Origin: a virus
Taxonomy: Duplodnaviria > Heunggongvirae > Uroviricota > Caudoviricetes
Reading direction: 5' to 3' (one strand)
Length of the DNA stretch: 17,283 nucleotides
Virus record (IMG/VR): IMGVR_UViG_2548877009_000010
Location: 1-17,283 of that record
Part shown: positions 3,001 to 6,000 of the stretch, piece after piece
Position numbering within the stretch: the stretch's first letter is position 1
How the letters are laid out: every line of letters begins with the position of its first letter
Made by a program: the position numbers

Positions 3001-6000
3001 TGTTTGCGCATTGATGCTGAGATACGTTTCCAGTCTTCGCGATCCTTGTCGATAACCTCATTTGTCGCCCAGCGATGGATGGTACCGTCAATGTTTCCTG
3101 CATCCACATCACCGGGCCAGAGGGCGCAGGCCAGTTCATTGTCGAGTGTTTTCCATGTCTGTTTGTATTCGCGGCGAACGGCAACAGTGACAGCCCCGGT
3201 TTTTTCAGCAGCGTTTTCAGTGTTCTGTTGGTTTACTCTGGAACGGGCGATATCAACGACAGATATGTATTTCCCGGTTTCCTTGCGTTCACTTTCGCGA
3301 CGTTTTTTCCAGATGCGCATCTCTGCCTGAATTTCGGGCCATTTAGCAGCAGGTTTACATTTATGCTTAACCCACCCGATGGCATGCAGCTTAAGCTCCG
3401 GATACATGGCGTTAACTTCTGGCATCTTCATCAACGCTTCAACGATATGGCCGTCGAATGTTGCCATGTCTTCCTGCAACAATTCCTGAGCGCTAATCAC
3501 CATATCAACAGTGATGTTTTCACATGCGTCGAACTTAACCATGACGGCGTTCTGTACTTCAGGGGCCAGATTGTCAAAAGTGATGTTCATCGGATCGGAT
3601 TCGGGTTCGACCGGGACAAAGGACGCAGACTCCTCATCCCAGCGGTTTTCCTGCATATATTCGGTATCCCAGGAATCGAGGGCAGGGCGGGGTATGCCGG
3701 GTTTATCCTTGCAGACAATAAATTTATAAGCGCAGTCCTGAGCTGCCGGGAATTGCTCCAGAAATTGCCAGTGAAATTTTGCGCGTGCGCGACGCTTATC
3801 ACCGGCTTCAATGGCAGTGGCCACCGCAACAGCGCTATCTTCTTCTATGGCCTGTTCGTCAGGAATAGCAGCGCAAATAAAGATTTTATTCATTGTGTTT
3901 TAACCTCATGACAGATTTCAGGGTGAACGAATCCCTGCCATTGCTGGCATTTTTAATCCGTTGGTATGGCGTTAATATGGCTGGCGGGTTATCCAGCCGG
4001 TGTTTCGTTATTCAGGTACAGCGATACTTTGTTTAACGGGAGACATTCACCGGAAATTTTTTGCTCGTCTCTTGCCTGATGGCAGGATTCTTTACTGGCA
4101 TAAATTCCGGTAATCACATTCTGTGGCTCACCTGTTATCAGAAAAACCGTCATCATCAGTGCAAACGCTGAACTCACTGCTGCCCTCCGAAAATGCCAAG
4201 TTCAAGAAGGGCAATTCTGGAGAGAATGGAATTATCATTGAGAAGATAAGGCTCATATTTTCTCATCCTGATGGCGTCCTCAGTAAACTCCCGGTTACTG
4301 AGCAGAATACCAATATTAAAACACCCTTCAGACGTATTAACGTTTGGTAGTGACGTTTCCATTATCGCGTCCTCAACAATGAATTTTGTGATGTGGTGCC
4401 TGGTGCCTCCAGGTGACGTTAACCAGTAAACAATTAACGTCGGAATACAGAATCACCCATAACGCTGTTTTTAGCTTTAACTGTTCCGCGTGCGCTTAGC
4501 CGCATTCACCGCATCACAAAATACACTTTAAAAATGGCGGATATCCATTTCTGCCGAATCACCAGAAAAGTGATAACAGAGGTTGTTGTGGCGGTGTTGT
4601 CACTCAGGCGTATGGTCAACCTGACAACCCGGTGCATTTTCTGGAACAATGGAGGAAGCCCCAGCCATACTTACCGCCGCGCCATTTCGCGGATTGCCAC
4701 AACCGGAAGCGCACGATCGAATTAAATTTAACGACGACATATACAGAGAGACTAACTTCGCCGTGCGCTTTCGTGTTATGCCCTGACTTTTCAGGGATAT
4801 GTTCTTTCAGTAAACTGTCAGTGCCGGATTCTTATCCGTGTCCGGCGCACGTGCTCTACCTCACCCGTGAATAAATTAATGATTAATTGATATTTTGTTG
4901 TTTGATTCAACTTTCCCATCGGATGTGTGATGCTTTAAATCACAGGAGTTAATACTGCTTGCTGTAAAATGATTTTCAAGGGGAGCTATTCGAATCCCTT
5001 TCTTTTTCATTAACAAGCCAAATCCTTTATTAATGATGTCCATTAATTCCAGAAAGTATTTTTCATGTAAATCCTGTTTATCAGAGAGCTGCTTCTCTTC
5101 GTACAGCCCGATAAAAGCTCGGCGTACGTTACCGGATATATTATCGATGGTTTCTTTTTCTACGGTACTCAGGTCAAGAGTGGCCAGTTGAGAACGAACT
5201 ATATTCGCTGCCATTTCCTGGAATGGTACTGGTAAATCTTTAAATTCCATCGTCAACCTCATCAGTCAGTGTTTCTGGCTAACCAGCGACGCGCGCCAGC
5301 TTCAGTTTTAAAAGTTTTGCTTCTGGTATACGTCATCGCGGTAAACGTGCCGTCCTGGTTAGGGAACACACCGCATACCAGAGATTCGTTGTTGCCAAGA
5401 TTGAGCGTATCCATGTTGACCTCATTTCCCCTTAACGCCGGGGCGCGGAACTAAAAACCTGCTGCGCTGTTATATAAAGTGTTCCCGCCGTCATGTTCAT
5501 ACGCCTCGGGCTGGCTACTTAACCCCTGACCACTGCCGGGTAACTCGAAGTATTGCCTGGCGTTCTGTGGGATGGGGTTGGAATAAAATAAAGTTTAGAA
5601 AAATGAACTTTACGAGTCAATGTTTTTTTATCAAAACATGACAGCAGGCAGCTGTTAAGCCATCAATATGATGGCGTACAGTAAATTAAGGGGATTAGTT
5701 AAATATCTTGTTGAATTTTAAAGCATACACCTAAAATGCGGGATATATCATCCAGCATGATTGATGGGTAGCGTGGATTTGAGGGAACTAAGAGGATGTC
5801 AGGTCCTTCTATTTCCAATTTACGAATTACTGGTGTAGTTGTTCCTTTTGGTAATGCTAGAACAATATTGCCATGTTGTGCGGTTCGATCTGGGTCGACA
5901 AAGACCGTTGATCCATTCGGAATTGATACACTTCCGCCTGCGGCAGACATACTATCGCTCTCTAGAACTACTGCAAATGTATTGACAGAAGTTTCACCAG

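Follow-up and report, generated by a model that had tools for sequence, protein, structure and literature searches.

A Conserved Structured RNA Heads the Leftward Early Transcript of a Lambdoid Prophage without N: A Possible cis-Acting Antiterminator

The stretch of DNA considered here, called the window below, comprises positions 1 to 17,283 of the IMG/VR virus record IMGVR_UViG_2548877009_000010 and is, according to its gene calls and its Pfam and PHROGs assignments, the early region of a lambdoid prophage. The leader of its leftward early promoter pL (5415-5591, minus strand) is occupied by a conserved structured RNA of a family which is found in a large share of Escherichia coli genomes as well as in lytic T7-like phages. 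In phages lambda and 933W, the antiterminator gene N and the site nutL lie directly downstream of pL. A first-pass annotation of the window had pointed out the lack of an N-like antiterminator at this place, but the RNA had remained unseen by it. We tentatively propose that the leader RNA acts in cis against termination and pausing in the manner of the put sites of phage HK022, possibly together with Nus factors where a boxA is present.

Evidence for a Structured RNA Family

Bases ~5427-5581 are matched at 87-89% identity in a dozen E. coli phages when phage records are searched with BLAST, and several of the matches cover the leader only (hits H9-H13 and H20-H24). Loci fetched by means of the YdfA protein indicate that the leader is composite, with a proximal module 2 (5421-5470) and a distal module 1 of ~105 nucleotides (nt), the structured RNA, which is present in a subset of these loci only. 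An exact-word scan of viral contigs gave mostly near-identical copies, together with two divergent ones in which whole helices are swapped. A scan anchored on the loop motif gave about 35 far more divergent members, from which the helices Pc, P0′-P0-P1, and P3 were assigned. RNAalifold, applied to a MAFFT alignment, recovered P1 and P2 only, and the other helices come from manual assignment and from a covariance model.

In the MAFFT alignment of 31 sequences (A2), 26 of 28 pairs are changed on both sides, and the covariation score is 0.428 as against 0.173 ± 0.013 after shuffling; none of 500 shuffles reaches the observed value, and slid controls do not exceed 0.168. The alignment of 45 full members built with covariance model R1 (A4) has 30 of 31 pairs changed on both sides and a score of 0.466 (shuffled, 0.167). 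Because an alignment fitted to a model leans towards the model's own structure, 19 further members were collected as a control (A6) by an anchor in the 3′ domain which carries no information on the loop L1, and they were kept outside model building. In this control, 27 of 28 pairs are changed on both sides, 87% of the cells are paired, and the score amounts to 0.712 against 0.229 for shuffled alignments. On these sequence comparisons, the family and its fold are regarded as certain to be real. Since G-U pairs are confined to the sense strand, the strand that is transcribed must be the minus strand of the window. When the leader is folded as a single sequence, its stability is equal to that of shuffled sequences (z 0.16); such folding is uninformative and partly wrong, and the structure was derived from comparative data only.

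The fold belongs to no known family. A search of the whole window against Rfam 15 at the gathering threshold returned three tRNAs only, and a search of bases 5350-5700 with E values up to 10 returned only a chance snoRNA match on the other strand. No description of the element was found in the literature searched, and an earlier description may still exist; papers on the regulation of Rac (PMC5917428, PMC11879457) do not describe it, and the preprint on the Pas small RNAs (sRNAs) is silent on the present locus.

Architecture of the Element in the Window

The element (5480-5585, minus strand as sense) is a three-way junction of ~105 nt closed by helix Pc. Model R1 matches the window once, at 5466-5602 (minus), with 123 bits over the full model (E about 1e-39). 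The Pc / P0′-P0-P1 / P2-P3 architecture and the L1, linker, and P3-loop motifs that characterize the family are all present in this copy, in which the helix coordinates were checked base by base. Pc is formed by UUCC (5580-5583) as 5′ strand and GGAA (5482-5485) as 3′ strand. In relatives it has 5-7 base pairs (bp), and seven of seven pairs show compensatory changes (e.g., CAGCAAC/GUUGCUG, UCAAAAC/GUUUUGA, and CGUUGAG/CUCAACG).

Inside Pc, a long arm consists of P0′, P0, and P1 and is interrupted by a 3 × 3 internal loop and a bulge of 4-5 nt. P0′ pairs ACCCC (5574-5578) with GGGGU (5522-5526), and all five pairs covary in the family (e.g., CACC/GGUG, GCUC/GGGC). P0 pairs CCAC (5567-5570) with GUGG (5530-5533), with covariation at four of four pairs (e.g., CGCAU/AUGCG, CUUAAC/GUUAAG). 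P1 pairs GCCAGG (5556-5561) with CCCGGC (5535-5540) and has one A-C mismatch in the window copy; in the alignments its six pairs all covary (e.g., CACGAAG/CUUCGUG, AAUUAAG/CUUAAUU, GCUGAG/CUCAGU), with 91-99% of the cells paired. The arm ends in the apical loop L1 of 15 nt (CAAUACUUCGAGUUA, 5541-5555), whose family consensus is CAAUAC-NN-CGAGUUA. L1 is invariant in A2 and A4, and slight variation is seen only in members collected with an unrelated anchor.

The arm is followed by the linker UAAGUA and the 5′ strand of P2 (together 5513-5521; family linker consensus AAGUAGCYA). This strand, GCC at 5513-5515, pairs with GGC at 5503-5505 inside the loop of hairpin P3. In 44 sequences, pairing at the three positions of P2 is complete (100%), and a C-G pair has U-G, U-A, and A-U variants; P2 is the helix that RNAalifold proposed as GCY/RGC. 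Since P2 crosses P3, the two probably form an H-type pseudoknot. P3 (5487-5511) pairs GCCCGA (5506-5511) with GACGGC (5487-5492) and encloses a conserved loop of 13 nt (GGCGUAUGAACAU; consensus GGCRUAYGAANRU). The top three pairs of P3 are non-canonical in the window (C-C and tandem G-A/A-G); in relatives the helix is fully Watson-Crick (GGUUGA/UCAACC, CCUAGA/UCUAGG, GUGAGA/UCUCAC, UCUGGU/ACCAGA, GUUCUA/UAGAAC).

Module 2 (5421-5470, minus) is separable from the large RNA and reads GCGCAGCAGGU ... GUUCCGCGCCCCGGCG ... followed by a Shine-Dalgarno sequence. It contains GUUCCGC..CCGGCG and is common to the Qin-type ydfA leaders, which have no structured RNA. In relatives, a small covarying hairpin is seen in this module (CGACG-ACC-CGUCG, CGGCG-ACC-CGCCG, CGCCA-GCC-UGGCG). 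In addition, most lineages, T7-like members included, have a GCAGCAG(G)U motif after the element.

Promoter and Repressor Control

A consensus scan places a sigma70-like candidate for pL at 5592-5620 on the minus strand, with the −35 hexamer TTGACT (5620-5615), a spacer of 17 nt, and the −10 hexamer TAAACT (5597-5592). The start of the transcript is predicted near 5584-5586, so that the element begins at about +1. The same hexamers recur at the divergent promoter pR (6371-6400). A CI-type repressor gene, encoding a helix-turn-helix and a peptidase S24 domain by Pfam, lies directly upstream of the leader on the same strand (5699-6337, minus). It is flanked by three copies of a 16-nt operator-like motif (GTTTTGAT-N4/5-AAAC) at 5622-5637 (minus), 6338-6353 (plus), and 6384-6399 (plus). 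The first of them, GTTTTGATAAAAAAAC, adjoins the −35 hexamer of pL, and the last overlaps the −10 hexamer of pR. The motif would thus be a binding site of the repressor and, as it also stands twice at pR, pL would be under repressor control.

Absence of N, nut, and put Sequences

The claim of the first-pass annotation that no N-like antiterminator stands between pL and the first leftward genes is borne out by several results. The ~170-nt leader, in which neither an open reading frame (ORF) of the size of N nor an arginine-rich peptide had been noticed, indeed has just two ORFs on its transcribed strand, of 22 and 33 amino acids (aa). The first well-supported ORF, which had been described as a 50-aa protein without an arginine-rich motif, is that of a DUF1391 (YdfA/YdaF) protein (5262-5414, minus; PF07151, E 8.5e-30) and carries no such motif. 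Neither N nor Nun turned up when the genes of the leftward operon and the small genes left unassigned were scanned with Pfam and PHROGs; only a Q-like late antiterminator was found (14205-14900, plus). A six-frame scan of the window gave no arginine-rich motif at the N-terminus of a plausible gene, and the best phmmer match of lambda N and HK022 Nun to the six frames of the window had an E of 0.41.

The first-pass annotation had also suggested a search for boxA and boxB, and it yielded no nut site. Neither a boxB-type hairpin nor a boxA is present in the pL leader or in the pR-cro-cII stretch: the best boxA matches have 5 mismatches out of 12 in the pL leader and 3 out of 12 in the pR-cro-cII stretch, and in the leader no CGCUCUUUA-like boxA is combined with a boxB bearing a GNRA-like, A-rich pentaloop. 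In lambda, the intergenic space after cro holds nutR and tR1, and in HK022 it holds putR. In the window, the P22-Cro-like gene (6429-6659, plus) overlaps a YdaT/CII-like gene (6656-7093, plus) in ATGA, so that 6429-7093 leaves no room for nutR or putR at the usual place, and the pR side of the window yielded none of the known types of antitermination signal.

The search was extended to relatives. Within 3.5 kilobases (kb) downstream of 154 related copies of the element, no N-like ORF (55-200 aa with an N-terminal arginine-rich motif) recurs. A 42-65-aa arginine-rich ORF (...RRAQRLAQKARAQNSSKKWDAAN... / ...RQFRRAQRLAQKARAQNSSKKWDAANRIMARA...) is found 50-330 nt downstream in 9 relatives, and its sequence recalls the arginine-rich motif of lambda N (...RRAEKQAQWKAAN). 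This ORF was rejected as an N analogue, since it has a match in the Kil family phrog_2055 (E 5e-6) and since most members of the RNA family, that of the window among them, lack it. In itself, the absence of N is ordinary, as Rac, Qin, and many other lambdoid prophages lack it.

The leader stands where a put site would be expected, that is, directly downstream of the early promoter of a lambdoid phage without N. A put covariance model (R2) was built from six put sites (putL and putR of HK022, HK639, phiEt88, CobraSix, and S9-5) and run with filters off. Its best match in the window reaches 5.4 bits (E 2.7) and lies outside the leader, in which R2 finds nothing; the put profile of stem I, stem II, and GAACGGCGCG / AAACCAUGCGUCGG / GGCGGG..CAGGA..CGGCAAU is accordingly missing there. 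Conversely, R1 has no match in the put loci. Homology to put had been considered on the grounds of a three-way alignment with HK022 putL and putR that showed GAACG and CCGGC.GUGGUCA.GG in common, and it was rejected since the put model finds nothing. The resemblance is coincidental, as the shared bases lie in helices which vary freely across the family.

Three possibilities had been left by the first-pass annotation: early antitermination might be RNA-based or absent, or N might be encoded elsewhere. The first gains ground in a new form, a leader RNA supported by covariation at the place of HK022 putL. The put model refutes a strictly put-like RNA, and a gene for N elsewhere finds no support in the 17-kb window.

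Distribution and Genomic Context

Module 1 is present in 3752 of 5426 complete E. coli genomes (about 70%); a genome may hold as many as 7 copies, and in none of them is the module annotated. The Rac prophage of an E. coli K-12 strain has one such unannotated copy, situated between racR and ydaG. Phages 640R1 and Tritos, complete or nearly so, share the layout of the window, with Q annotated and N not annotated. Each locus has one copy, on the pL side; in annotated loci it stands downstream of the repressor gene in the same orientation. By a strict consensus, 17 of 43 loci have a sigma70-like promoter in the 70 nt upstream, compared with 2.4% of control positions, and the median distance from the end of the −10 hexamer to the first base of Pc is 8 nt across the family, which means that the RNA begins at about +1. 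The genes downstream are diverse (DicB, YdfA, YdaG, Kil-like, and many unknowns), with no one family shared throughout; the RNA is thus independent of any linked protein.

The element is not confined to lambdoid prophages. Lytic Autographiviridae carry it too: in Providencia phage PS3 it stands behind an annotated sigma70 early promoter of the host type, and PSTRCR_114 has it as well. A further copy is found on a 40-kb contig which encodes a T7-type RNA polymerase, 2.3 kb upstream of the polymerase gene and on the same strand as this gene. Of 40 unique members, 6 have a boxA with two mismatches or fewer in the 130 nt downstream of the element, compared with 0.7% of controls. The members with boxA belong mostly to T7-like and AT-rich Providencia-type lineages, and one marginal match falls in a lambdoid-type locus. 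In PS3, a perfect rrn-type boxA, CGCUCUUUAACAA (CGCTCTTTAACAA), comes after the element (locus L193, 1924-2100). Other forms of boxA after the element, in six further loci, are GCTCTTTAAAAA and GTTCTTTAATAA; in PS3 and these loci, boxA stands at distances of 20-115 nt from the element. A boxA at this place marks these leaders as antitermination regions, and it would imply that Nus factors are involved in the early transcription of lytic Autographiviridae.

Proposed Function and Alternatives

The function put forward for the leader RNA is drawn from its context. According to the proposal, the RNA would fold on emerging from the host RNA polymerase and would stay on the elongation complex, either directly or through host Nus factors, and the complex would become resistant to pausing and to both Rho-dependent and intrinsic termination. 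No N protein would then be needed for transcription from pL to cross untranslated and sRNA-bearing stretches and to arrive at dicB, the exonuclease, xis, and int. In Rac-type lambdoid phages and in some T7-like early operons served by the host polymerase, the RNA would have the role that put has in HK022.

Several features point in this direction. The diversity of the downstream genes and the lack of an accompanying protein family suggest that the partner is probably a conserved host machine. What Rac-type pL and T7-like early operons share is multi-kilobase transcription by the host RNA polymerase from a strong sigma70 promoter. The most conserved nucleotides of the element are unpaired. Most plausibly, the RNA attaches to a conserved host machine during its synthesis, since it lies at the extreme 5′ end, keeps its conserved nucleotides unpaired, and is indifferent to what is encoded downstream, and since it takes the position of putL in N-less phages and is sometimes followed by boxA. 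That this machine is RNA polymerase and that the outcome is antitermination, we infer from the same evidence.

The operon of the window would also need read-through, because a 513-nt untranslated gap (4363-4875, minus, by the ORF list) and an sRNA-like element precede dicB, the exonuclease, xis, and int. The gap lies upstream of the dicB-like gene and includes a C-rich, G-poor tract; in such a stretch, an unmodified polymerase would be expected to be halted by Rho or by sRNA terminators. An STnc100-like RNA at 4330-4537 (minus) reaches into it, with a sub-threshold score in an E-value search of Rfam (32.6 bits, E 4e-5; gathering score 47). In phage Tritos, DicF is annotated at the equivalent position, between the element and dicB. 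In the dicB operon of Qin, DicF ends in an intrinsic terminator.

A number of observations weigh against this proposal. No equivalent element follows pR, each phage having a single copy on the pL side. The Qin-type ydfA...dicB operon has no structured RNA, R1 having no match in Qin-type loci, so that the RNA is not indispensable in an operon of this kind. The window copy has its weak points, Pc being just 4-5 bp long and half of P3 being non-canonical. A simple scan for terminators in the minus-strand operon gave none that was convincing. As the fold is unrelated to put, binding to the polymerase cannot be argued by homology, and we know of no need for antitermination in T7-like phages.

Among the other explanations, the one that survives best is that the RNA is not itself the modifier of the polymerase and serves as an assembly platform like nut, which recruits a protein and, with boxA and Nus factors, builds a complex resistant to termination. 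Such a protein could come from the phage, as an antiterminator encoded elsewhere that has escaped recognition, or from the host, with NusA, S4, or SuhB as examples. The boxA close downstream in T7-like lineages, which parallels the boxA-boxB of lambda and the boxB-boxA-boxC of rrn, agrees with such a platform, and the highly conserved loops could be sites for a protein. However, no protein family co-occurs with the RNA across lineages, and the downstream regions of the 154 copies surveyed contain no arginine-rich ORF like N. The lambdoid members, including that of the window, have no boxA save for the one marginal match, and a phage-encoded partner common to Rac-like prophages and T7-like lytic phages seems improbable. 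The platform is unlikely as a separate explanation; if its partner were a host factor, it would merge with the proposed cis-acting antitermination.

The RNA might instead be a 5′-terminal stabiliser against RNase E and RppH, or the precursor of a stable sRNA of ~110 nt which acts in trans on a host factor or RNA. The extreme 5′ position and the pairing of the 5′ nucleotides in Pc would fit, and other sRNAs are known in the same operon type (DicF in Tritos and the STnc100-like RNA in the window); such an RNA would be the first product on induction or infection, in both lifestyles. Yet neither a terminator nor a conserved processing signal follows Pc, and for stabilisation a simple 5′ hairpin would do. 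A specific ligand is implied by the three-way junction, the pseudoknot, and the nearly invariant unpaired nucleotides, about 40 in number; a stabiliser or sRNA precursor is quite doubtful.

A sensor has an even slighter claim. The RNA would be a riboswitch or a Rho-dependent attenuator whose 5′ half, rich in C and poor in G, loads Rho unless it is folded, so that a ligand or signal gates the early operon. The three-way junction, the pseudoknot, and the conserved nucleotides of junction and loops resemble riboswitch aptamers, and the 5′ strands are strikingly rich in C and A and poor in G in all lineages. On the other hand, no conserved expression platform was seen, neither an alternative terminator/antiterminator pairing nor sequestering of a Shine-Dalgarno sequence; the sequence after Pc is variable, and the gene context suggests no metabolite.

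A feature of the DNA (extra operators or a protein-binding array) or a leader peptide MNMTAG...RR started at AUGs in the P3 loop can hardly be right, for despite a 22-codon ORF (5432-5500) that begins in the P3 loop, ends at a UAA of module 2, and stays in frame in a Rac-type copy in spite of indels, the compensatory changes, including G-U pairs on one strand, are the signature of an RNA, and conservation peaks in the loops without three-nucleotide periodicity. The peptide MNMTAG... was rejected as a candidate because, though it is in frame in two subtypes, its AUGs are absent in many members (loops with GGCAUACGAAAGU) and the ORF is not conserved.

Significance

To our knowledge, examples of processive antitermination by RNA alone come essentially from a single small family, that of put in HK022 and close relatives. 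The leader RNA may represent a second, structurally unrelated class of polymerase-modifying antiterminator RNA, far wider in its spread than put, which would act on the host RNA polymerase where early operons begin, whether or not boxA and Nus factors take part; this broader claim is made with reserve. If it holds, it would provide a second independent solution and a second structure to compare on RNA polymerase. It would also explain how the common N-less prophages of the Rac type express their genes for recombination, inhibition of cell division, and excision, and it would extend antitermination to lytic T7-like phages, whose early operons transcribed by the host polymerase are not regarded as antiterminated. 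Antitermination by RNA only would then be a common strategy of phages rather than a curiosity of HK022.

Whatever its function, the element is a large and well-supported RNA motif without an Rfam family, carried by thousands of sequenced E. coli genomes. A conserved RNA of ~105 nt at pL of K-12 Rac and at T7-like early promoters should come as a surprise to the specialist. The hypothesis is directly testable, as the K-12 copy between racR and ydaG is at hand and standard reporters suffice.

Other Features of the Window

The remainder of the leftward operon, all on the minus strand, includes a phrog_6937 protein (4876-5262), which comes directly after the DUF1391 gene, and, beyond the untranslated gap, a DicB-like protein (4174-4362), a DUF1482 protein (3989-4177), an 823-aa protein with a C-terminal Rv2179c-like 3′-5′ exonuclease domain (1422-3893), an excisionase (1109-1357), and an integrase (1-1131). 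The 823-aa protein is annotated in related phages as "exodeoxyribonuclease VIII"; its sole Pfam domain is the C-terminal Rv2179c-like 3′-5′ exoribonuclease (DEDD), and its long acidic N-terminal part is unmatched.

On the plus strand, the CII-like gene is followed by replication genes and a nin-like region with NinG and RusA, and the Q-like gene by a DNA methylase and three tRNAs. The tRNA cluster (16561-16812, plus; Met-CAT, Arg-TCG, Arg-TCT) is arranged as in many prophages of the Stx and Rac types. Within the rightward nin-like region, two small overlapping ORFs of 106 and 136 aa run in the opposite direction (11815-12440, minus). Judged by eye, they look like an antitoxin-toxin pair, ParD/CopG-like and ParE/RelE-like.

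Comparison with Known Systems

The dicB operon of Qin (ydfA-ydfB-ydfC-dicF-dicB) is of the same type as that of the window, with DUF1391 as its first gene, dicB, and the same module 2, whereas the Qin-type leaders are short and lack the structured RNA. Two other kinds of prophage element were considered and set aside. Anti-sRNAs of the AgvB/AsxR type map to the moron site at PR′ and not to pL (PMC4104026), and trac, a Rho-dependent terminator of Rac situated within racR, belongs to a different transcript, that of PRM (PMC4150792).

The rrn leader, with its boxB-boxA-boxC and its complex of Nus factors, is comparable as an RNA signal which depends on host factors only and stands near the 5′ end of a long transcript that is poorly translated or untranslated. 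Sites with boxA only, for example upstream of CRISPR arrays (PMC7665894), are antitermination signals that likewise need host factors only. In contrast to the new family, rrn leaders have no counterpart to the structured part, and most lambdoid members of the family have no boxA.

The nut site of lambda with N resembles the new element in being promoter-proximal in the early leftward leader, upstream of an operon in need of read-through, and boxA is close by in the T7-like members too. It differs in that the window has no N or Nun, no boxA, and no boxB-type hairpin with a GNRA-like loop, and the new RNA is about seven times the size of boxB.

The closest parallel is put. The put sites of HK022 and the similar sites of HK639, HK75, phiEt88, and other phages occupy the same place, the 5′ end of the pL transcript in lambdoid phages without N. 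Both put and the new element are cis-encoded structured RNAs of about 70-125 nt with no dedicated phage protein nearby. In put, as in the new element, a pseudoknot-type element is combined with conserved unpaired nucleotides (PMC9378689). The differences are nevertheless considerable. The new element is a three-way junction and put consists of two stems, with no homology found in sequence or structure; unlike put, the new element is also present in lytic T7-like phages, and boxA comes after some of its members. put acts in cis through the zinc-binding domain of the RNA polymerase β′ subunit, suppressing pausing and termination without protein factors. Its function is proven, while that of the new element is proposed from context.

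The two RNAs may also be connected by their locus. The leaders of put-bearing phages have the same 5′ start, AUCGAAACGCAnCAnCG, as the new family over the first ~17 nt. In HK639 and CobraSix, a remnant AAGU(U)AGCCAGC..GGCGAA common to the new family precedes put (z 4-6 against shuffles). As far as the HK639 record was examined, its annotation has a putL-like site and no second one. Stretches similar to the new family are seen upstream of put in HK639 (L002, 2950-3005), CobraSix (L004, about 2950-3000), and phiEt88 (L003, 2975-2992). The common start and the remnant suggest that put and the new RNA have been exchanged at one locus, and it looks as if put had replaced most of an ancestral copy of the new RNA in these leaders. 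What is new here is the RNA; as a mechanism, it would be another case of antitermination mediated by RNA.

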